Part shown: positions 1,302-11,830 of the stretch, piece after piece | Layout of the letters: every line of letters begins with the position of its first letter | Position numbering within the stretch: position 1 is the stretch's first letter | UHGV virus genome: UHGV-0196841 | Strand: one strand, 5' to 3' | Length of the DNA: 19,870 bases | Origin: a virus | Notes under the pieces: generated by a model | Told to the model about the DNA's origin: nothing | Database searches by the model: none | What the model saw: the letters and a program-made list of their open reading frames with translations, nothing else | Program-made: the position numbers and the translations under genes

Positions 1302-1389
1302 GGAAGTGTGGCCGAGCGGTTGAAGGCACCGGTCTTGAAAACCGGCGACCCGAAAGGGTTCCAGAGTTCGAATCTCTGCGCTTCCGCCA
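1302..1389 (+). tRNA. serT: tRNA-Ser, anticodon UGA
   Basis: 88-nt sequence GGAAGTGTGGCCGAGCGGTTGAAGGCACCGGTCTTGAAAACCGGCGACCCGAAAGGGTTCCAGAGTTCGAATCTCTGCGCTTCCGCCA. It has a 7-bp acceptor stem (GGAAGTG/CGCTTCC), an anticodon stem CCGGT/ACCGG with loop CUUGAAA (anticodon UGA), a long variable arm typical of class II Ser tRNAs, a TTCGAAT T-loop and encoded CCA. Confidence 0.95.
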
Positions 1390-1469: not shown

Positions 1470-1713
1470 TTCAGTCTTTAATATCTGCGATATTTTTCCC
1501 GCGAGCGCCTCTTTTGATGTCTTTGTGGCCTCAAGGTTTTTCTGAGCTAACGACCAGTTTCCTGATTGAATGCAAATCCCCCAGACTGCTCAGTTCTTCC
1601 TTCATCTCCCTCCGACGGCGATAAATCTCGTCATTGCGATCGACCTGCGCCTGCGCCATCTGTCAGCGCACCTGATATCACTACAGACATAGTTTTTCTC
1701 GCGATAAATTAAA

Positions 1714-2244
1714 TCAGGAAGAGGCTTCCGGAGAGACGGGCCATTCAATGGCGTTATATGAGGTTTTATCAGTGATGGTGCTGAAATCCATCGCCTGCAG
1801 CGATTTCGCGTAAATGCGCCAGACTGTCAGCTTTTCTTTTTCTTCATCACCGATGATTCCCAAAAGTAAATCCGTCTTCTTATCGGATATTTCCCGTTCG
1901 GCAATCGCAGTAAGACGTGCACGCTCCGACTCTGCCTGCTGCCTGTAGTCAACAGGGACCGGTAGTACTTCACCGTCTTTATAATACCAGCGCGCCTCTA
2001 TACAAAAGCCATCCGGTAGTTCATCCACTTCCACAATGGTAAAACCAACGGGATAAAGACGGGATACATCTTCCGCCACGGAATAAATAACGCCGGTTTC
2101 AGGATGCGTGCACAGCTTGTATTTCTTCGTGAATTTATCCAGTGATTCATAAAAATCCTGCCCGTCTTCACTACGGAAATACTGAATGCCGTCACCATAA
2201 GGCATGTCTTCAGGGTAGTAACGCGTAATGTTTGAGAGTTCCAT
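1714..2244 (-). CDS. Tail fibre assembly protein (Tfa / Mu U-like chaperone)
   Basis: 177 aa from ATG at 2244 (MELSNITRYY...), preceded by AAGGAG 6 nt upstream. The C-terminal region (QQAESERARL...LLLGIIGDEEKEKLTVWRIYAKSLQAMDFS...WPVSPE) matches the conserved Tfa pattern. Sits immediately downstream of a fibre gene. The ORF-track start at 2280 would overlap the fibre gene and lacks an RBS. Confidence 0.85.
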   Translation of the reverse strand: MELSNITRYYPEDMPYGDGIQYFRSEDGQDFYESLDKFTKKYKLCTHPETGVIYSVAEDVSRLYPVGFTIVEVDELPDGFCIEARWYYKDGEVLPVPVDYRQQAESERARLTAIAEREISDKKTDLLLGIIGDEEKEKLTVWRIYAKSLQAMDFSTITDKTSYNAIEWPVSPEASS

Positions 2245-2258
2245 TATTTTCTCCTTAA

Positions 2259-3368
2259 TTAACCTGATACAGATCGCCATGCACCATTAATATAAATCTG
2301 AGCCTGTTTGTAATACACGCCACCGATATTGTCTGCAGAGTTACGGCCAGTATCCTGAACATTAATGCCTGACAAAACACAACCAGAAGGTGCTCGAAAC
2401 GTCCAGCTGTGCTCGTTCCCGCCCGGGTTGTAAAACACCTCACTGGTATACTGAAAATTCTGTACGCCACCTGTTTTGGTCTGGTAGCGGGCATCGAAGT
2501 TTCCGTAGTCTGACGGTATAACCTGACGCCCGCATCGCCAGTTTCCCGCATCATCCATATACGCCTGACCGTCCGTACCATTATCCGTACGGCTATTATT
2601 TATCATGTAAATGCCAAACTGCTTATTCCCAAGACCAGCCAGGAAATACTTTCTGTCTGCATGATCCTGACGCAGAAGCGCCTGAGCAGCATCAGTATTT
2701 ATCCTGTTTTTCCCGAAAATAACGTTGTTGTCACGCATCTGAATCCACGTTCCGTTACTGCTGTTAATCGCAAAACGGCCTGCAAATACATCTTCTGTAA
2801 CATCCAGACCGTGTCCCATAGTTATGCGACCGGTCCTGAGATTAAGCGTAAAGGGGCGTAGCGGCCCAATATCACCACTCTCGCCCTGATTTTCCCGGGT
2901 AGGAATGAGGTGCAGACACTCTTCCGAACGACGAAAAATCAGACCAAAGGCTTCGTTGAAAATCCTCAGTGCATTAACACCACGGATTTTCAGCTCCCCG
3001 GTCATGGTGTCTCCATCACGCTGAACGGCATTTTTTGCCTTATCCACCGTGGGTTTTAATCCGAGGTTTTCAACAGCCTCATCACTGTCTTCGACATCCG
3101 AAAGATTATTTTTTATCAGCAATGCCTCTTCGTTAATTGCACCGCCCACCAGTAATAATATGGCTTTATATAACTGGTCGTGTTCCTCTTTATTCAGTTC
3201 TATCCCGGCCTTCTCAATGACACCACAGATTTCCTCCTGAAGGGCATCCCACATGGCACTGTTCAGCCAGGTGGCATGACGCCCTGTACGAATATTCCCG
3301 TCAGTAAATCCGTTCTTGCCCGGGCCAAATTTATCTTTAACTGCTGTCGGAGTGTCAATTCTGTGCAT
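2259..3368 (-). CDS. Tail fibre protein, distal/receptor-binding part (P2 gpH C-terminal-like)
   Basis: 369 aa. ATG at 3368 with GGGAGG 6 nt upstream. Segments AVQRDGDTMTGEL, SDYGNFDARY and the C-terminal AQIYINGAWRSV resemble the corresponding parts of P2 gpH-type fibres as I recall them. Followed directly by tfa. Confidence 0.8.
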   Translation of the reverse strand: MHRIDTPTAVKDKFGPGKNGFTDGNIRTGRHATWLNSAMWDALQEEICGVIEKAGIELNKEEHDQLYKAILLLVGGAINEEALLIKNNLSDVEDSDEAVENLGLKPTVDKAKNAVQRDGDTMTGELKIRGVNALRIFNEAFGLIFRRSEECLHLIPTRENQGESGDIGPLRPFTLNLRTGRITMGHGLDVTEDVFAGRFAINSSNGTWIQMRDNNVIFGKNRINTDAAQALLRQDHADRKYFLAGLGNKQFGIYMINNSRTDNGTDGQAYMDDAGNWRCGRQVIPSDYGNFDARYQTKTGGVQNFQYTSEVFYNPGGNEHSWTFRAPSGCVLSGINVQDTGRNSADNIGGVYYKQAQIYINGAWRSVSG

Positions 3369-3398
3369 ATTAAACCTCCCGTGAATGAAATATCAGAA

Positions 3399-4448
3399 TT
3401 ATGTCCTTGCCTGATTAAACAATTCCGCTGTGAAAGTCAGTTCACCCTTTGTGAAAGGCGTTTCTCCGCCTGGCTGGGCCATAAAACTCTGTGAGACAGT
3501 CGTCCAGCTGTTTGTGTCGCTTTGTACGCCATTCTCTGTAATCGTTGCACCTGCATGGCTGCCATTTTTCACTTTCCAGGCCAGGCAGTTATTGGGGGCA
3601 TCAGCACCGCGGTAAGTGACCGAGGCCATAACAGCCACAACATCACTGTTGCTGTTATCCACCGCATCAAACGTGGCCTGTGCTGCATTCAGGGACGGCG
3701 AGAGCATCAGATATCCGGCCTCGCTGTCAGAGGTGTTCAGCCCCGTGACAATATCTTTATTCAGTGAGTTTTTGGCGCTTCCACCGGTAAATGCCGTTAC
3801 CGGGCTGTATCTGACCTCAATGCTTCCGAGCAGGGCGGGTTCCGCGCTGTTATTTTTTCCGTATGCCACTGTTCCACAGTACATATCACCCAGCATTAAC
3901 GTGCCGGATGCACCCGATGAAAAAATATTGTCACCACTACCAATACTCACCTGAATTTTGTCAGTCCGGTCATCTGATACATAAAACGATGCATTTCCAA
4001 CTAATGAGCGGTTGCAGTACAGACTGGCTGAGACATAGCCGTTTTCGTTTCGCGTTGCGAAAATTTCATAGTAATAACTGGCTGCTTCATCAGGATACGG
4101 GGTTGTAAATGAATAGCCATTAATCCTGATGTGGGATGGCGAAGATGAATATTTCTTTCCCGCACTTAATGTCAGACGAAATCCCAGCTGTACAGCTGAG
4201 GATTTTAAGTCCGGAAGTGTGCTGTACAGTGTGACATATGAGGGTGTCGTAAAAATCAGCCCCGTTCTTTCTACAGTATTTACGGCCTGAGTGCCACGAC
4301 AGACGGATGTTACAGAACCGGACATATCATTGATAAGCGTGACACCGTTTTCGTTCAGTGCTGAAATAATATTTGTTGAATAATAGTTCTCGCACAATCC
4401 CTCATTCGCCGGAATTTGTCGAAAACTTTCGAGTTTAATAATATTCAA
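3399..4448 (-). CDS. Hypothetical protein, no recognisable family; possible tail fibre proximal part or accessory receptor-binding protein
   Basis: 349-aa ORF with apparent TTG start at 4448 and strong AAGGAG about 7 nt upstream; first in-frame ATG is far inside. Ser/Thr/Asn/Gly/Tyr-rich, no signal peptide or TM segment, five Cys. DNA is visibly more AT-rich than the flanking baseplate genes. Lies between the gp48-like gene and the fibre gene. Confidence 0.6.
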   Translation of the reverse strand: MNIIKLESFRQIPANEGLCENYYSTNIISALNENGVTLINDMSGSVTSVCRGTQAVNTVERTGLIFTTPSYVTLYSTLPDLKSSAVQLGFRLTLSAGKKYSSSPSHIRINGYSFTTPYPDEAASYYYEIFATRNENGYVSASLYCNRSLVGNASFYVSDDRTDKIQVSIGSGDNIFSSGASGTLMLGDMYCGTVAYGKNNSAEPALLGSIEVRYSPVTAFTGGSAKNSLNKDIVTGLNTSDSEAGYLMLSPSLNAAQATFDAVDNSNSDVVAVMASVTYRGADAPNNCLAWKVKNGSHAGATITENGVQSDTNSWTTVSQSFMAQPGGETPFTKGELTFTAELFNQART

Positions 4449-4471
4449 AGCGGCTCTCCTTTTATTTTATG

Positions 4472-5431
4472 TCATTCGGACGTGACCACAGCAAAATGCA
4501 GTCCCGGGTGATTAATCAATAACGGATCACGGGTTCTGCTGGCTGTCTGCAACTGCATACTGTTAACCGGTACGGGGGAGCGGGTCCTGTATCCCGTCTG
4601 CAACTGTGCGCAGTTCATGGTCATGGGGTCCGTTGTCGGCAGACCTGAGTGCAATTGCGCCCTGCTGAGTACCAGTGGTTCTGCCATCGGACGGGCGGCA
4701 TAAAAGTTAATCCGGTTAATTGTCAGCGGCTTACCTGTCAGTGCCGGAACAACCGCAAAATGAACACCTGTATGATTAATCGCTAATGGCTCAGTCGTCT
4801 TGTGTCCGGCCTGAAAGGAGAGGCTGTTTATAGTCAGGGCGGCTTGTTGCCCTTCACCAGACTCATCCGGATATGCAAAAAGGACAACAGTATGCGACGG
4901 ACATAATTTATTAATCACGCACTCCGCAACCGTATCACCCCACGTCCGGATCGGTGTGTTACAGGTGTCCGAACATGTCTGCCACTGAGCACCGGCATCC
5001 ACCGGCAACGTCACACGCCAGAAATAACGCCAGCGATCACCCCATTCCGGATCGGGGCTTGCATCCAGGTGCTGGAACTGTTCGATCGTCACGCCGGTAT
5101 ATCCCAGCGCCTCAAGCTGCTCCAGGAAGAACTGCTCATTTATGCCACCAGCCACATTGGCTTTTGCTTCCAGCCGTTGCTGACGCTGGCGTAATGTCTG
5201 GGCTCCAACAGGAGAGCAGGTGTCAGGTAAACCATACAATTCTTCATAACGTTCAATCAGCTCTGTTGACTGACCAGGATCGATTTCAGCCATCAGTTCA
5301 TCAGTCCGCTGATGAACACGTACAAGCGATGGTGCCAGACCATCAAGCACGCCGTCGGTATCGCTCCATGCAGGCCCCGGCGGCATCAGTCCGTACAGCA
5401 GCTTTGTATAATCATCCTGTAACGAATCCAT
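4472..5431 (-). CDS. Baseplate protein, Mu gp48 / DUF2313-like, with about 130-aa C-terminal repeat-containing extension
   Basis: 319 aa. ATG at 5431 overlaps the stop of the upstream gene (TAATG) and has AAGGAG upstream. Position directly after the Baseplate_J-like gene, and an N-terminus MDSLQDDYTKLLYGLMPPGPAW, fit the gp48/YmfQ family. The C-terminal third contains duplicated motifs (INHTGVHFAVV / INHPGLHFAVV; QLQTGYRTRSP / QLQTASRTRDP). Confidence 0.7.
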   Translation of the reverse strand: MDSLQDDYTKLLYGLMPPGPAWSDTDGVLDGLAPSLVRVHQRTDELMAEIDPGQSTELIERYEELYGLPDTCSPVGAQTLRQRQQRLEAKANVAGGINEQFFLEQLEALGYTGVTIEQFQHLDASPDPEWGDRWRYFWRVTLPVDAGAQWQTCSDTCNTPIRTWGDTVAECVINKLCPSHTVVLFAYPDESGEGQQAALTINSLSFQAGHKTTEPLAINHTGVHFAVVPALTGKPLTINRINFYAARPMAEPLVLSRAQLHSGLPTTDPMTMNCAQLQTGYRTRSPVPVNSMQLQTASRTRDPLLINHPGLHFAVVTSE

Positions 5432-6513
5432 TATTTACTCCTTGCCGGGTCATAAGCCTGCCAGGTGATCTCGCCGAGCACCGGAAGCTCGGTCTCCCCC
5501 AGGTCAATATCCGATGAAGGGACGATTAACCGGTGGGCCACTTCACCAGCAGACAAACTGATGGCCTCACTGATTCTGGACAGATACATACGCCCCTCTG
5601 GCACACCATCCCGTAACATCAGTGCATTCAGCTCTGCTTTTATTGCAGTCCTGATCTGCGGTGTGTCTTTCGATAATGCAATCGTCATCGGGATGACTTT
5701 TTCTGTGGCACCGAATACATACAATCCACTTCCGGCAACCGGTGTCAGAGGAAGAATGTGCTCTCTGACTGCATTAATGACGCTTTCATCCGGAGCCGGA
5801 TGTTCCGGATCGTTTGTCGCCACCATCACGCCAACCGTTCCAATGCCTTTCCAGTGTCTGAAAGTCCATGCACGGTTAATACCCTGAACTTCTTTCGCCC
5901 AGATAACATAATCAGGGTCTGCGCCCCCCTGTGGAATGTAGTAATAACGTTCCATAACGCGGGCACGCCATATTTCCAGATTTTCAATATCTTCACCGTC
6001 TGTAATGGTGTCCGCGTACCCTGTGGACGGCAGACCACTGACGGGTGTTCCCAGTTGCATGGCAATACCATCATCCGTATTCCCCGCCGCCCCCGGTTCA
6101 TCTGCCACAACAGGCACCCGGAGAAGACCATCGGCTGCGGTCACCGTCGCCGTCGTGGTGAAGGTCACCTGATCATCACGCTGGATCTGCGTTCCCGCTG
6201 GCAATACAGGTGTTCCCTCTACGCCATCCCAGCGCACAAATCCCCGGGCTGTCACCGCATCTTTTCGCAGGCAGCGTTTGATTCTGGCGTGCCGGTACAA
6301 CCAGTCTTCATCACACATGTCCGGCAACAGATTTCTGGCAAGATAATCGATATACCCGTACAACGTGTGTACGGCTGCAGCCTGTACACGGGCATACACT
6401 TCCGCATCCATACGACGAAGCAGCGTATCCTGCTCAAAGCGGGTTAATAAATCGCTCCGGATCATAGAAATAAGTTGCGGAAGGCCGGGGCGATAAAACT
6501 GACTGTCAGCCAT
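5431..6513 (-). CDS. Baseplate J-like protein (Mu gp47 / P2 gpJ family)
   Basis: 360 aa, ATG at 6513. Size and position match; assignment from recalled family similarity. Overlaps the upstream gene by 8 nt. Confidence 0.8.
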   Translation of the reverse strand: MADSQFYRPGLPQLISMIRSDLLTRFEQDTLLRRMDAEVYARVQAAAVHTLYGYIDYLARNLLPDMCDEDWLYRHARIKRCLRKDAVTARGFVRWDGVEGTPVLPAGTQIQRDDQVTFTTTATVTAADGLLRVPVVADEPGAAGNTDDGIAMQLGTPVSGLPSTGYADTITDGEDIENLEIWRARVMERYYYIPQGGADPDYVIWAKEVQGINRAWTFRHWKGIGTVGVMVATNDPEHPAPDESVINAVREHILPLTPVAGSGLYVFGATEKVIPMTIALSKDTPQIRTAIKAELNALMLRDGVPEGRMYLSRISEAISLSAGEVAHRLIVPSSDIDLGETELPVLGEITWQAYDPARSK

Positions 6514-6919
6514 TCAGTTCACTCCAGATATCATCAAAAATAATGTTGTGAATATTGCCGTCACGCTGGTAAATGGTAATGGCAAGTGCCAGCGAGTCTG
6601 TCCCGGTCCGGACAGCGTTAATATCAAGACGGGAAGCAACACCATCCTCCACCATCCACGCCAGCGCCTCACGGGCATAATCTCTGGCAAGCTGCGGGGT
6701 TTTATTTGTCAGCTTGCTGCGTCGCAGCAGATACAGACGCGACCCCGTGCGATCATTCTGAACAGCAGGCCAGGTATCCCCCCACCATCCAAATATCTGC
6801 GGTGCATCATCATCCCGCCCGGCACGCCGCCAGGTAAAAAGCGAAATAATCACAGCACGCGTCAGAAGGTCGAGCAAAGCCCCGGTCGACACGGGTCGCC
6901 CGTTAACATTAATCATCAT
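6506..6919 (-). CDS. Baseplate protein, Mu gp46 / P2 gpW-like
   Basis: 137 aa, ATG at 6919. Small protein between the gpV-like and gpJ-like genes, as in Mu and P2 baseplate clusters. Confidence 0.7.
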   Translation of the reverse strand: MMINVNGRPVSTGALLDLLTRAVIISLFTWRRAGRDDDAPQIFGWWGDTWPAVQNDRTGSRLYLLRRSKLTNKTPQLARDYAREALAWMVEDGVASRLDINAVRTGTDSLALAITIYQRDGNIHNIIFDDIWSELNG

Positions 6920-6924
6920 GATTT

Positions 6925-7458
6925 TCAGCCCATCGGTTGATCCGGCGTGTCAGTGATCCCGCCACCATCACCATTTTCGGTGTGTTTGTGGGCATTGTAG
7001 GTCTGCCGCATTTGCTGCATGCTGAGTCCGCCACTGTCGCAATTGTCAGTAATATCGGCGGTGGATTCGACTGGCATTTCAAAGCGCGCTTTAGGCGCGT
7101 TTTGAAAAATAATGGGCTTCCCGGCCCCGTTCACCACAATACCGGAACGGGTCAGGACAACGGACTGTCCCAGATCGTCATAAAGCGCCACTTCCCCACG
7201 TTTCAGTCCTTTCAGCCGGTAACGTCTGTCAGCCACGACCACAACCACACCATGAGAACGATCGCCCGCCGGAAATAAAGCAACGCCCTCAGCACCGTTC
7301 TGTGCGGCAGATGTAAAACCATAAGGTTCAAGGTGCTCAACGTGTTGTTTCTGATCTCCGGCTATCATTTTCAACCCTACAGACTGACACTTTCTGGCGG
7401 AATCCACCGCCGTGATGACAGCCCGGGAAATCAGATTGCGAAGAGAAAACCCGTTCAT
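6925..7458 (-). CDS. Baseplate assembly protein V / central spike (Mu gp45-like)
   Basis: 177 aa. ATG at 7458 overlaps the stop of the upstream gene (ATGA). Gly-rich C-terminus and conserved position. Confidence 0.75.
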   Translation of the reverse strand: MNGFSLRNLISRAVITAVDSARKCQSVGLKMIAGDQKQHVEHLEPYGFTSAAQNGAEGVALFPAGDRSHGVVVVVADRRYRLKGLKRGEVALYDDLGQSVVLTRSGIVVNGAGKPIIFQNAPKARFEMPVESTADITDNCDSGGLSMQQMRQTYNAHKHTENGDGGGITDTPDQPMG

Positions 7459-8513
7459 CAGAAATCCTCCTCAACATTTTTTTTCTTCCTGGCGGTAACA
7501 GGCTCGGGGAGATAAGCATCTGCCGGGCCAACCCGTAATTCAGTCGTCGTGCCCCGGTCGTCCTGGTTATAGGTAACTTCTGCAATCACCAGTTCATCAT
7601 TATCAAAATTATTCAGCGGGTCGAAAACGATGACAGATAACCCCGGACGCCATAACGCGCCACTGCCCTGCCGCCAGCCCTGAACCGTATATGTTGTCTC
7701 ACGGGTAAGCGCAGCCCGTTGGCGCGCTTCAAATTCACAACGGGCCTTACAGGTTGCTGTCGTTGCTGTGCCTGACTGCTGAATCAACAAAGGGCGATAA
7801 CGGGTCACGCCATTGTCCTGAATGGTCTGACGTATTGCGGCAATGGTGGCCTCACCAAAATCATCGTCGTTGCCCGGGCGCTGCCCACTGACCTGATATT
7901 CAGAAAACCGCTCTCTGATGCTTCTTTCCGTGTCACAGGAAAGAATATTCTCTCCCAGCACCAGTGCCGTCGCCGCTTTGCCTGTTCCGGGTTTCCCAAG
8001 AACCAGTCGCCCACATTCATCGTCATAAGCCAGCGTCTGAACCTGCCCCAGCAACCGGTTAAGACAATCGGCAACAGTTTCGCCGTGTTCCGGCTGTGCA
8101 TCAATCACCGCAGTCTGAGGCACGCCAGCATCAACAACAGTGATGCCAAATGGCGCAGCCAGTTCAGTGACTATTCTGAGCAGGTTTTTTCCGCTCTGCT
8201 GGAGTGGCAAAGCAGAGCAATCAACCAGATCGGCTGTTTTGCTTCGCCCGACAATCCCCATACTGACGCTGCTGGCGTCATAACGAAGCGGTAGTGCCTC
8301 CACATATCCGGTGAGCACGGGCTCATCCCCGATAAGCACTTCAACCAGCTCACCATTTTTTATCCGGGGCTGATAATCCCGGCTGCCGGGCCAGCGGGTG
8401 GTAATGGCAACATTAAAATCCCGGGCAATACGGTTAATGCCCGCACTGATACGGACGGATGTCCAGCCGCCCCATTCGCGACCGGAAACCCGAAGTAAAA
8501 CGGTATTATTCAT
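7458..8513 (-). CDS. Tail/baseplate hub protein, Mu gp44 / P2 gpD-like
   Basis: 351 aa. ATG at 8513 overlaps the upstream stop (ATGA). Position between the DNA-circulation-like and gpV-like genes. Confidence 0.75.
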   Translation of the reverse strand: MNNTVLLRVSGREWGGWTSVRISAGINRIARDFNVAITTRWPGSRDYQPRIKNGELVEVLIGDEPVLTGYVEALPLRYDASSVSMGIVGRSKTADLVDCSALPLQQSGKNLLRIVTELAAPFGITVVDAGVPQTAVIDAQPEHGETVADCLNRLLGQVQTLAYDDECGRLVLGKPGTGKAATALVLGENILSCDTERSIRERFSEYQVSGQRPGNDDDFGEATIAAIRQTIQDNGVTRYRPLLIQQSGTATTATCKARCEFEARQRAALTRETTYTVQGWRQGSGALWRPGLSVIVFDPLNNFDNDELVIAEVTYNQDDRGTTTELRVGPADAYLPEPVTARKKKNVEEDF

Positions 8514-9901
8514 CTGACGGGTACCCTTAATGTCCTGACCGGAACAAAGCCCGGGTGGGAGATGGCATTTCGATCCAGGATATCTGTTTCACGGGACGCA
8601 TCGTCGTACCATGACGCAGCCAGAACAAGTGCAGGCAGCACCTCCGCTGGCGTTCGCTCTGCGGTTTCCTCCGTCTGAACCAGACGCGCCTGAATATCCC
8701 GGTTCAGCTCTGTACGTAATGACGTCAGCTGAAAAAACAGCCCGTCGTCCATCGTGCGTCTGAGCTCCTGTTCAATCGCCGCATTCAGCGATTCGCGTAT
8801 GATGGTAAGTTTTTCCCGCGTGGGTGGTTGCGCTGTTTCATTCTGTTCTGTGCTGGCTGCCACGCTGCCAAGCGCCGGATGAGAAACATGAATAATATCG
8901 GACTGACGTTCAGTGGAACCACCAACAGCCACAACCGCCTGCTGATTTTTCACCAGACTTCCGGGTTGCGGCAGTGAAGATACCGCCCTTACAGCCTCGC
9001 TGATTGCCGTCGTCCGGATGACGGCTGCCACCAGATTTGTCTGCTGTTTTTGCCTCACAACCGATGCGGAATCTGTGGGCCACACCGCACGCGGTGCCAG
9101 TCCTGGATCCAGCGTAATACCGGACATTGTTGTTATGGACTGCACCAGATCCTGTGTGTTATCCACCAGTCTGGTTCCGGCCCGCCAGGTATCCTGCAAC
9201 ATATGCACAAAATCACTGGCAACCGACGGAGGCATCAGAATGACGGATAAATCGCCCTGCAGTAGTCTCGCTCCGGCAGAAACAGCCGAATTAACCATTT
9301 TGAAAGCTGTCTGAACGGTTCCCAGCATATCGGTCGTCCGGGCAATCACATCGTTCTGAATAAAGTCCGGCATTCCCGCGAGATCAAAATCGCCGAACAT
9401 GTCTTCAATCAACTCATCCAGGAATACGGACGACTCCTCCAGTTTTCTGGCGGTTGCAGCTCCGGCGACCGGAAATGACAGTTCCCCGCTCTCAACAAAC
9501 TGAAATGAAACCCGGCACATACGGCCTTCAGTGCCGGAGTGAGAAACGGTCACCTGCCCATCAATACAGCCCTGCATTTCACCGAACTGCGGATGGATCA
9601 GCGTCCCCGGCCCGGCGGTTTCAATCGCTGTAATCAGCCTGTCGCGCTGCTCTGCGTAATCATCACCAACGAGATACGCATTAATCGTCAGCCGTCGCGT
9701 GGCACGCCCGAGATCCTCCGTGTACGGTTTGTCACGGTTTGGATATTCATGAACCTGAACGCGGCGTCCGAACGAACCCTCGTCGCTCTCCACCGAAAAC
9801 GGAACGCCGCGAAATGAAGCATCGTAAAGATTATCGCGCCAGGTCGTTCCGGAAGATGAAGAAAACAAAGAGGACAAAGAAGGTAAGGAAGGAAAATCCA
9901 T
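8510..9901 (-). CDS. Mu gp43-like DNA circulation protein (tail protein)
   Basis: 463 aa, ATG at 9901. N-terminal region (WRDNLYDASFRGVPFSVESDEGSFGRRVQVHEYPNRD) matches the DNA-circulation N-terminal domain family as recalled. Immediately follows the tape measure gene. Confidence 0.8.
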   Translation of the reverse strand: MDFPSLPSLSSLFSSSSGTTWRDNLYDASFRGVPFSVESDEGSFGRRVQVHEYPNRDKPYTEDLGRATRRLTINAYLVGDDYAEQRDRLITAIETAGPGTLIHPQFGEMQGCIDGQVTVSHSGTEGRMCRVSFQFVESGELSFPVAGAATARKLEESSVFLDELIEDMFGDFDLAGMPDFIQNDVIARTTDMLGTVQTAFKMVNSAVSAGARLLQGDLSVILMPPSVASDFVHMLQDTWRAGTRLVDNTQDLVQSITTMSGITLDPGLAPRAVWPTDSASVVRQKQQTNLVAAVIRTTAISEAVRAVSSLPQPGSLVKNQQAVVAVGGSTERQSDIIHVSHPALGSVAASTEQNETAQPPTREKLTIIRESLNAAIEQELRRTMDDGLFFQLTSLRTELNRDIQARLVQTEETAERTPAEVLPALVLAASWYDDASRETDILDRNAISHPGFVPVRTLRVPVR

Positions 9902-9916
9902 TCTGATACCCCATTA

Positions 9917-11830
9917 TTAACGCCTGAAAGGTGAATACCCAACGTCATGGGTTATTTTCATAAAGGGATCGCCTGTTTTCGGCAAATCGATAACGCGCAT
10001 TCCCTGTGGCGCATTGTCAAACGTGACTTTGATTTCACCACGTGCTGCCACAGACGATATCGCCGGATTAAGCAAAGGAACATTCGGTTTGTACTGACGC
10101 GGCTGATTAAGGGATGCCTGGTATTCCTCATAATTTTTTCGATTAAAAAACGGGGTCCAGTCAGAGGCCAGATATATGCCATGATCCCTGGCCCAGTTAA
10201 CATCGCCCTCAGGCAGAATTGATTCAAGTGCATTTTCGACGGGCTCCCACATCATAGAAGCCAGCACCCCATATACACCGGCTTTTCCGATAACGCCCCC
10301 GCCTTTACCAAACAATCCGGTAGCGGCAGTGACCTTGCCGAGTGTGCGCATATCCTTCGTCACAATGCTGATTGATTTAGTGACATCGGTGACCCACTTT
10401 GTCGCCATAAAAATGGCGATTGCTTTAAGGATCGTTTCCCATCCCCCCATAGCCTGGGCGGTGCTATCAATGACTTCCCAGACATTTTTAATAACCGGTC
10501 CAACGGTTTCCCAGTTATCAATTATGAGATATGCACCACCGACGAGAAGCGCAATTAATCCCTTTGCCGGCGTCATATTCATCACGCTACCCATGATTTT
10601 TGTTATGCGTGTCAATGTGCCAATCGCCACGCCCATCGTCAGTAATGCCGCACCAGTTTTCGCGATGGTTTTTACGACCTCAGGATTTTCTCTGACAAAC
10701 GTGCGCACTTCTTCCAGAAAAGGCTTCATCTCTTTTATGCCTTCATTGATTGAAGGCAGGAAGGTTTCCCCCAGCGTGGAAGAAATCGCATTGATCTGGT
10801 TCTGCAGCAGCAACAACTGATTTTCCGTCGTCGCGGCACGGGCGGCATATTCTTTCTGCATTGAGCCGCCATACTGCTGCGCATCCGCCACACGATTAAA
10901 GTTGGTTCGCAACAAATCCAGATTCGTGAGTAGAGGCGCGATGGATCCAGAAGATTCCTTGCCGAACAGCTCATTAAGCGCGGCGGCCTGTTTTTCTTTC
11001 GGCACTTTCGCCAGAGAATCCAGTACGTGCAGCATGGCCCCACGGGCGTCTTTCTGCATATCCGCCGCCAGTTTTTTCGGGCTAATGCGCAACGAGCGGA
11101 GCACTTTTTTCTGCGATTTGGTGGCAGAATCCCCCGCTGTCAGCGACAACATAAAATTCTTTATCCCCGTCGCCGCAATTTCTGATTCCACCCCCATTCC
11201 GGCAATGGTTGCCCCCATTGCGGCAATCTCTCCGGAGGCCACACCCGCAACACTGCCTAAAGGGCCAATACGGGTCACAATATCAGAAATCTTTTTCGCA
11301 CTTGCAGGACCGGTATTACCAAGATAGTTAATCTTGTCCGCAAGTCCTGCCACCTCTCCCTGTGTCAGTTTAAAGGCAGTGCGCCACTGTGCCATCATCT
11401 GACCGGATTCTTCTGCCGTGGTGTCAAAAGCCACGCCCATCTTCACGGCATCGTCAGTAAACTGCATCAGCTCGTCACGGGCGATACCAGCCTGACCACC
11501 CGCCGCCACAATTTCGGCGATACCTTCCGCCGACATGGGCAGTTCTGTTGACAGGTCGCGCACCTGCTCCGTCATTGCCTTAAACGCTTCCGGCGTATCC
11601 AGACCATCCACCACTTTCCGGACATCCGCCATTTTTGATTCAAGGGCAATGGCAGATTTGACCGGGAGCGCCAGCGCCCCCAGTACTGCGGTTCCGGCAC
11701 CCGCTGCGCCCAGAGACAGGCTGGCAAACTCCTTTTTAAAGCCTTTCAGCTGGCGCTGCATCCCTTTCAGCGGTGCCGACACCTTATCCACGGCAGTGAT
11801 GATCGCCTTCAGCTGAAAACTGTCAGCCAT
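9917..11830 (-). CDS. Tail tape measure protein
   Basis: 637 aa, ATG at 11830. Largest tail gene, with Ala/Gly-rich hydrophobic central segments, directly downstream of the chaperone and frameshift region. Confidence 0.85.
   Translation of the reverse strand: MADSFQLKAIITAVDKVSAPLKGMQRQLKGFKKEFASLSLGAAGAGTAVLGALALPVKSAIALESKMADVRKVVDGLDTPEAFKAMTEQVRDLSTELPMSAEGIAEIVAAGGQAGIARDELMQFTDDAVKMGVAFDTTAEESGQMMAQWRTAFKLTQGEVAGLADKINYLGNTGPASAKKISDIVTRIGPLGSVAGVASGEIAAMGATIAGMGVESEIAATGIKNFMLSLTAGDSATKSQKKVLRSLRISPKKLAADMQKDARGAMLHVLDSLAKVPKEKQAAALNELFGKESSGSIAPLLTNLDLLRTNFNRVADAQQYGGSMQKEYAARAATTENQLLLLQNQINAISSTLGETFLPSINEGIKEMKPFLEEVRTFVRENPEVVKTIAKTGAALLTMGVAIGTLTRITKIMGSVMNMTPAKGLIALLVGGAYLIIDNWETVGPVIKNVWEVIDSTAQAMGGWETILKAIAIFMATKWVTDVTKSISIVTKDMRTLGKVTAATGLFGKGGGVIGKAGVYGVLASMMWEPVENALESILPEGDVNWARDHGIYLASDWTPFFNRKNYEEYQASLNQPRQYKPNVPLLNPAISSVAARGEIKVTFDNAPQGMRVIDLPKTGDPFMKITHDVGYSPFRR

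Follow-up and report, generated by a model that had tools for sequence, protein, structure and literature searches.

ORF349 (3399..4448, minus strand) is a 349-aa open reading frame in the tail module of the viral genome UHGV-0196841, whose analyzed stretch of 19,870 nt is referred to as the window. Our results suggest, with moderate confidence, a two-part accessory receptor-binding device in which ORF349 is the lectin-fold head, encoded by a gene of its own, that would dock on a repeat array beside the normal tail fibre. In a system of this kind, the gene of the head is expected to remain linked to that of a virion-anchored protein with a docking module. Such conserved linkage was found for ORF349 and its homologues: the repeat array is present in the same tail cluster as the family member in every locus with a readable upstream region.

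Linkage of ORF349 with a 17-residue repeat array

Directly upstream of ORF349, the window encodes a gp48-like protein of 319 aa (4472..5431, minus strand) that matches the Pfam family Phage_Mu_Gp48 (PF10076; E 1.7e-24; residues 13-187). Its core (residues 1-194; 4850..5431, minus strand) is a Mu gp48/YmfQ baseplate wedge domain with 92% identity to L53 of phage phiP27 over residues 1-195. This core is a genuine member of the wedge proteins represented by Mu gp48, P2 gpI and YmfQ, from which the window protein differs by 125 extra repeat residues. The extension is composed of seven tandem units of 17 residues each, except for unit 2, which has 20 residues. The repeat module, our proposed docking site for ORF349, covers residues 198-319 (4475..4840, minus strand) and its unit boundaries are located at 4840-4790, 4789-4730, 4729-4679, 4678-4628, 4627-4577, 4576-4526, and 4525-4475. 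The repeat consensus is P-L-[VT]-I-N-R-A-Q-L-Q-S-[AG]-x-x-T-x-E, and the array is closed by a "terminal-type" unit (PLxINHxGxHFAVV), which in gp48-type arrays is also found as unit 2 (units 2 and 7 in the window). The lag-17 autocorrelation of the extension reached z = 8.4 relative to shuffled sequences and the core repeat motif was observed six times for 0.08 expected occurrences. Tandem Repeats Finder detected no DNA-level tandem repeat in the window, and the array is therefore visible at the protein level only.

Few proteins were recovered with repeat queries: the repeat module alone yielded one protein and a profile built from ten modules yielded seven. This is probably due, at least partly, to the annotation of extended gp48 genes as pseudogenes. 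Indeed, in RefSeq/PGAP records the extended gp48 gene (YmfQ family) commonly bears the pseudogene label "incomplete; missing C-terminus", with only the first 195 codons covered (e.g., NZ_AP041814.1 and NZ_OZ547049.1). This label seems to be an annotation error that keeps the repeat module out of protein databases, as the 125 additional codons continue the reading frame, are conserved, and evolve under purifying selection (ratio of nonsynonymous to synonymous substitution rates, dN/dS, of 0.27-0.49).

Assemblies, IMG/VR, and genomes of GTDB provided loci for a diverse set of family members, and 38 member-containing loci were scanned with a script. In 34 of these 38 loci, three to eight repeat units form the C-terminal end encoded by the open reading frame that stops 6-58 nt before the member. 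In two loci (L004 and L005), the member is directly preceded by a 64-aa open reading frame in which two or three units can be recognised. In L019, L020, and a plasmid copy (L048), the gene order is gp48 with repeats, fibre, assembly protein, and family member, such that the array and the member are separated but remain within one tail cluster. L009 and L026 provide no sequence upstream of the member in which the pairing could be read.

The array is found on proteins of four Pfam virion-attachment families, or on stand-alone proteins, which represents at least five anchor contexts. The carrier belongs to Phage_Mu_Gp48 in the window, L012, L020, L028, and L029 (the latter with an added Ig-like domain), to Tail_P2_I (P2 gpI) in L043, to phage_tail_N (the N-terminus of lambda Stf) in L006, L008, L010, L022, and L037, and to Phage_tail_fib (a P2 gpH-type N-terminus) in L023 and L041. 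No carrier domain accompanies the small stand-alone proteins of L004 and L046. Distant family members keep the pairing, with correspondingly diverged repeats. One of them, encoded in a P2-like tail, is preceded by a gpI with about four units of "PVKAINGTTINAGNVLS", also 17 residues long, and the gpI gene stops one base short of the member gene. In L046, the member gene is preceded at the same distance by the gene of a 90-aa protein made of beta-strand repeats of about 18 residues.

Members with at least 89% identity to ORF349 of the window are paired with arrays of five or seven units, and the two seven-unit arrays are only ~46% identical. Recognition, if any, must therefore rest on the consensus positions of the repeat. 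The number of units varies independently of the head, and the recombination joints are located between the anchor and the array, not between the array and the head. Neighbouring units with identical protein sequences were observed in some loci (e.g., "PLSINRLYLQSGAKTQE" three times in L008, 5700..5979; "PLVINRVMLQSGRMTQE" twice in the upstream open reading frame of L031), and the arrays of L029, L030, and L031 are distinguished by a single unit or by the sequence of their units. These patterns suggest recent duplication and loss of units by unequal recombination.

The Stf-type and gpH-type N-terminal stubs carry no distal domain of their own. A conventional fibre and its chaperone are encoded alongside the pair in the myovirus loci (the window, L006, L010, L020, L041, and L043), and the pair replaces stf-tfa in the lambdoid loci. 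The P2/HP1-like tail of L041 (Escherichia albertii; 2858..7059) possesses two fibre sets in tandem: the first consists of a 566-aa gpH-type fibre and a Caudo_TAP protein, and the second of a 285-aa gpH-type N-terminal stub ending in five repeats, followed by the family member.

The inserted cassette and the ORF349 gene

The alignment of the window with phiP27 (blastn) revealed 95.4% identity over 10049..4862 and 90.7% identity over 3378..2829, separated by 1,483 unmatched bases (3379..4861, minus strand). This cassette, which is not present in phiP27, contains the last part of the gp48 core with the 125-aa repeat extension joined to it in frame, a 23-nt spacer with the sequence AAGGAG, ORF349, and a 30-nt spacer that supplies a new ribosome-binding site (GGGAGG) for the fibre gene. 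In phiP27 and ST64B, the closest cultured relatives, gp48 is 196 aa long and its end is directly overlapped by the fibre gene. The initial annotation described an extra cistron at the gp48/fibre junction, and the comparison with these two phages bears this out in the form of a discrete insertion. More generally, the gp48 proteins of phages that were examined end at ~190-200 aa: all 77 phage hits stop near residue 195 of the 319 residues of the window protein and leave the extension uncovered. The second half of the inserted unit, the 125-aa extension of gp48, was overlooked by the initial annotation and is key to the interpretation.

ORF349 lies between the gp48-like gene and the gene of the conventional tail fibre (2259..3368, minus strand; phrog_6859, tail fiber; E 4e-171), which is located outside the cassette. 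The fibre gene is followed by the gene of the tail fibre assembly protein (Caudo_TAP; 1714..2280, minus strand; PF02413, E 1.9e-21; phrog_136), which serves the conventional fibre. Relative to L54 of phiP27, the fibre presents 61% identity overall and ~95% identity over residues 1-180. Because the fibre keeps its own complete baseplate-attachment N-terminus, ORF349 is not the proximal part of the downstream fibre and represents an addition rather than a replacement. A proximal fibre segment was one of the three functions initially offered for this gene; it is contradicted by the complete N-terminus of the fibre and by the lack of a match of ORF349 to any fibre family. A tail-fibre proximal or shaft domain was rejected, as no match to phage_tail_N, Phage_tail_fib, Phage_fiber_2, collar, or tail-fibre PHROG families was obtained for ORF349. 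In the same PHROG scan, the neighbouring fibre matched 23 families, most of them annotated as tail fibre or tail protein.

ORF349 is a real and constrained coding gene, as indicated by its pairwise dN/dS against homologues (0.16-0.27). As read from the sequence, its TTG start codon (4448..4446) is preceded at a spacing of 7 nt by the Shine-Dalgarno sequence AAGGAG (4461..4456), all on the minus strand, which the initial annotation did not specify. This start is supported by the conservation of the N-terminus MNII.LEGFRQIP in all homologues. Several properties reported at the outset were recovered: S, T, N, G, and Y together represent 43.6% of the residues of ORF349 (25-33% in four other tail proteins), no transmembrane segment was found (maximum 19-residue Kyte-Doolittle window of 0.67), and the N-terminus is unlike a signal peptide. 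The reported AT-richness is real but not specific to the gene. The guanine-cytosine (GC) content of ORF349 is 0.469 (0.419 in its 5' half) relative to 0.53-0.54 in the baseplate genes; however, the downstream fibre and assembly genes are as low in GC (0.475 and 0.462, respectively), which indicates that the GC drop is common to the whole distal cassette. Within the late tail operon, ORF349 shares the strand of its neighbours, from which it is separated by spacers of 23 and 30 nt, and no promoter or terminator was found to flank it as a unit of its own.

We found no match of ORF349 in Pfam (even at E up to 5), NCBIfam, or PADLOC, and no match to sequences of the PDB with either the single protein or a profile. 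It is therefore not part of any annotated Pfam or NCBIfam family, in line with its initial description as unrecognised, but it is catalogued: ORF349 matches phrog_8291 (PHROGs v4, unknown function) over its full length (positions 1-349 of 349; E 5.5e-242; 802.8 bits). Its only other PHROG match is marginal and of unknown function.

Predicted fold and alternative functions

The AlphaFold2 model of ORF349, built from an alignment of 25 sequences, is all-beta with high scores (predicted local distance difference test, pLDDT, of 91.7; predicted template modeling score, pTM, of 0.90). The initial annotation had suggested a beta-rich, lectin-like protein from composition, and the model agrees with it: the predicted fold is a concanavalin A (ConA)-like, lectin-type beta-sandwich jelly-roll (LamG/lectin/glucanase) that can be superposed on known members of this superfamily. 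A Foldseek search against the PDB also pointed to the ConA-like class, and no solved structure matched the full two-lobed architecture (TMq at most 0.34). At the level of the fold, ORF349 thus belongs with the ConA-like superfamily (LamG, legume lectins, carbohydrate-binding modules, and the polysaccharide lyases PL7, PL14, and PL36), with sequence identities of at most 13%. The gathering threshold of Laminin_G_3 was not reached by ORF349 of the window, and weak matches to this family were obtained for three of 25 homologues (best E 1.6e-4).

A search of viral structures (BFVD) matched the two-lobed architecture over its full length in orphan proteins from several siphoviruses (template modeling scores of 0.61-0.67). 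The top match is a 352-aa "virion structural protein" of Achromobacter phage AchV4, which corresponds to AchV4_0026 by its length and name. The gene of AchV4_0026 closely follows that of AchV4_0024, a short putative tail fibre, and its neighbours on either side, AchV4_0025 and AchV4_0027, encode proteins of similar size (L042, 16050..19264). Both AchV4_0025 and AchV4_0026 were detected by liquid chromatography-tandem mass spectrometry in CsCl-purified virions (PMC7996906). Proteins of the AchV4_0025/0026/0027 type (phrog_2448), found in Casjensviridae and other siphoviruses, resemble ORF349 in being two-lobed, all-beta, of similar size (333-377 aa), and encoded directly after a short fibre gene. 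Unlike ORF349, they occur as runs of paralogues; they too are without assigned function. Runs of two to three paralogues include AchV4_0025/26/27 (all phrog_2448), and three proteins of Serratia phage JS26 are among the BFVD matches. The comparison of the ORF349 family with AchV4_0025 and AchV4_0026 using hhalign revealed no significant sequence relation (probability <25%; <1% for AchV4_0026). P0041, the most distant member of the family, matches both the profile of the window family (E 1.4e-6) and phrog_2448 (E 5.4e-5), and provides a weak transitive link between the two groups at the sequence level.

These observations lead us to propose the following model. The late tail operon would supply both proteins; the core of gp48 would assemble into the baseplate wedge, with the repeat array protruding at the baseplate rim, and ORF349 would bind the array non-covalently through its most conserved surfaces. 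As a component of the virion, ORF349 would then expose a carbohydrate-binding site of the ConA-like type towards the surface of the host (O-antigen, capsule, or lipopolysaccharide), which would confer a second adsorption specificity beside that of the normal fibre encoded just downstream. The array and the head would constitute a portable cassette that can be grafted by recombination onto any virion-attachment domain. A two-part device is suggested by the Stf-type and gpH-type stubs without a distal domain and by the fact that all anchors identified with Pfam are virion-attachment domains. It is further suggested by the co-transcription of the pair with the genes of the tail, where the gaps are very short and the pair lacks a separate promoter or terminator, and by a fold that is typical of carbohydrate recognition and whose nearest structural relative is a virion protein of a tail module. 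A second receptor-binding or carbohydrate-binding protein is the best supported of the three functions that were initially offered.

Several observations weigh against this model. We infer the binding of ORF349 to the array, and the AlphaFold2 model of full-length gp48 alone, based on a shallow alignment, reached a pLDDT of 35.7, too low to bear on the folding of the repeats by themselves. In P2-, Mu-, and pyocin-type baseplates, gp48 and gpI are expected to be monomeric in each wedge, and Stf (as in lambda) and gpH are expected to be trimeric; the array is found on anchors of both types, as well as on free small proteins, and one simple docking geometry is not obvious. The ConA-like fold is also used by enzymes and purely structural domains. 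The likeness of the ORF349 model to AchV4_0026 is structural only, as seen from the hhalign probability, and attachment in AchV4 must differ, since no comparable 17-residue repeat array was seen in AchV4_0024. In addition, no cultured phage carries the ORF349 gene. Finally, conservation is fairly even along ORF349, with no strongly conserved N-terminus combined with a hypervariable C-terminus, which makes it a weaker case than the textbook pattern of receptor-binding proteins.

The array itself may be a rod, folded as a beta-solenoid and ending in a docking unit, or may consist of independent binding sites in series that would form a multivalent brush. A bolder reading is that the array acts as a universal and hitherto undescribed "socket" made of short tandem peptides, independent of the oligomeric state of its carrier, in which each unit or pair of units would receive one head. 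Chains with three to eight heads would then form a multivalent brush on Mu-like, P2-like, and lambdoid tails. We view this socket reading as speculative and rather improbable.

Other readings give ORF349 a different role, and all of them appear unlikely. The protein could be a virion-attached enzyme rather than a passive lectin, such as a jelly-roll polysaccharide lyase or hydrolase (depolymerase) degrading capsule, O-antigen, or exopolysaccharide. The comparison with PL7, PL14, and PL36, whose clefts are lined by conserved catalytic residues (Tyr with His, Gln, and Arg, or Lys with Tyr), indicated fold similarity only. Positions invariant across the ORF349 family include Q, R, K, Y, E, and D but no His. 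We consider an enzymatic role improbable.

About as improbable is a role as assembly chaperone or tip stabilizer of the array, analogous to Tfa, gpU, or gpG, where the array would be the functional tip and ORF349 would be off the virion or would not bind receptors. Members of the family do occupy the tfa position after the Stf-type stub in lambdoid loci, with no Caudo_TAP gene following, and the gaps of 1-58 nt to the repeat-bearing gene suggest coupled expression. However, a 349-aa protein with a lectin-type jelly roll is unlike known fibre chaperones, the repeat consensus is conserved across unrelated phages, unlike a receptor-binding tip, and the closest structural relative of ORF349 is itself a virion component. 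A chaperone of known family (Caudo_TAP, Tfa, gpG, or gpU) was rejected, as ORF349 has no match to PF02413 or related PHROGs and these proteins are about 175-200 aa long.

It is slightly less probable still that ORF349 is a purely structural accessory of the baseplate or fibre with no receptor role, for example a brace of the conventional fibre. Its likely anchoring beside the docking site of the fibre on the wedge and its even conservation would agree with such a role, but the same protein is paired with Stf-type and gpH-type stubs without any other distal domain and is found in lambdoid siphovirus tails devoid of a gp48-type wedge. A baseplate-specific part would not be portable across such tails.

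The least probable reading, and a very doubtful one, is a moron or cargo gene without a structural role, serving lysogenic conversion, superinfection exclusion, or defence and located at the fibre hot spot by chance. A moron was the third function initially offered. The gene is lower in GC than the baseplate genes, is often near prophage ends, where cargo genes accumulate, and is patchily distributed (1.2% of Escherichia coli genomes), with many carriers resembling enterotoxigenic E. coli (ETEC), but it is placed inside the late tail operon with short spacers and no promoter or terminator of its own, lacks a signal peptide, a transmembrane segment, and a PADLOC match (which also led us to reject a catalogued defence family), is no more AT-rich than the fibre and assembly genes, resembles in its predicted fold a virion protein detected by mass spectrometry, and is found in strict co-occurrence with repeats fused to virion proteins, which chance would leave unexplained.

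Relation to known systems, distribution, and prophage context

Separately encoded recognition heads are known from other phages. In T2, T6, and S16, gp38 is encoded by a separate cistron just downstream of its carrier gp37 and is a non-covalent, exchangeable host-recognition tip with a polyglycine-II sandwich fold that caps the trimeric tip of gp37. ORF349 is similarly a separate cistron just downstream of its proposed carrier. Unlike gp38, it has a predicted ConA-like fold, its proposed socket is the array of 17-residue repeats, and it has no match to Pfam GP38. Anchored proteins that dock separate receptor-binding proteins are also represented by BppU-BppL/BppA of TP901-1 and Tuc2009, gp66-gp63.1 of G7C, TSP1-4 of CBA120, K1-5, and Klebsiella phages with dual receptor-binding proteins. 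Such anchor and adaptor systems provide a second specificity and modular exchange, and BppA is an accessory carbohydrate-binding protein of the baseplate. The known docking modules are globular (T4 gp10-like or XD domains and the C-terminal domain of BppU), and we know of no system that uses a short tandem peptide repeat or that moves between Mu-like, P2-like, and lambdoid tails.

Because these T-even gp38, BppU/BppL/BppA, G7C, CBA120, and K1-5 systems are known, the concept of an adaptor with a head is not new. Anchor-branch and adaptor receptor-binding systems are among the subjects covered by a published source (PMC13579863). Our literature search yielded no description of the 17-residue array as a conserved partner, of the head family, or of the movement of the cassette across Mu-like, P2-like, and lambdoid tails; phrog_8291 itself is a family without annotation, function, or described partner.

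The fibre and its chaperone are commonly taken to account for the host range of temperate coliphages. Here, a second and self-contained recognition device appears to be grafted onto four classes of virion-attachment domains in Mu-like, P2-like/HP1-like, and lambdoid tails. The device has escaped notice because the head is labelled as hypothetical and annotation routinely mistakes the extended gp48 gene for a broken one. If the docking is true, it would provide a function for phrog_8291 and probably also for the larger orphan group of virion proteins phrog_2448. It would also offer a small transferable tag for adding receptor-binding proteins to the baseplates of phages or tailocins, and a marker of dual-specificity prophages in E. 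coli, many of them in ETEC-looking strains. If our reading of the socket is also true, a receptor-binding module could be moved between myovirus and siphovirus tails through ~50-125 repeat residues fused to an exposed tail protein.

The ORF349 family is narrow. A search of 5.8 billion proteins retrieved 27 clusters, nearly all from E. coli and one from Raoultella. An exhaustive profile search of 1.84 billion representative proteins returned only 17 proteins, which indicates a narrow family without annotated relatives. P0030, a distant member associated with a P2-like tail, also falls in phrog_8291. ORF349 was absent from the 50,697 deposited phage records of INPHARED (tblastn), and no INPHARED record encodes phrog_8291, which suggests that the members come from prophages only. 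Among complete E. coli genomes, 64 of 5,426 (1.2%) carry the gene, which is always labelled "hypothetical protein". This rare and mobile distribution fits the horizontal acquisition that was initially proposed. Some carriers possess several copies, and four matches in complete E. coli genomes are located on plasmids. One of these copies lies in a tail cluster of a 249-kb plasmid of conjugative type (L048, NZ_OZ547049.1; 6970..10421) with psiB, ssb, and parB nearby. A cassette identical to that of the window is found, for example, in E. coli AST262 and TD225-C4. Many carriers are named as in ETEC collections (B7A, ETEC6, TD225-C4, E2528-C1, and E-numbered strains), an observation based on strain names only.

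The window represents the tail and head part of a prophage of the phiP27/ST64B/SfV type with its morphogenesis genes on the minus strand, and the prophage region adjoins a tRNA-Ser(TGA) gene (1302..1389). In phiP27 (L002, 6979..9170), a second fibre set (L56/L57) follows the first fibre and its assembly protein. The window aligns with this region in only two short pieces (1559..1862), which indicates that the second fibre set is missing from it. The window phage and phiP27 therefore seem to carry different kinds of "second" host-recognition modules. Finally, the locus of E. coli O166:H15 (L001, NZ_AP041814.1) contains, at ~26.6-43 kb, a complete-looking Mu-like transposable prophage nested inside a phiP27-like prophage. 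It is inserted just upstream of the gp44-like baseplate gene and encodes a repressor-like helix-turn-helix protein, a Mu transposase, an AAA ATPase, GemA, and Mor, as well as lysis and head genes.

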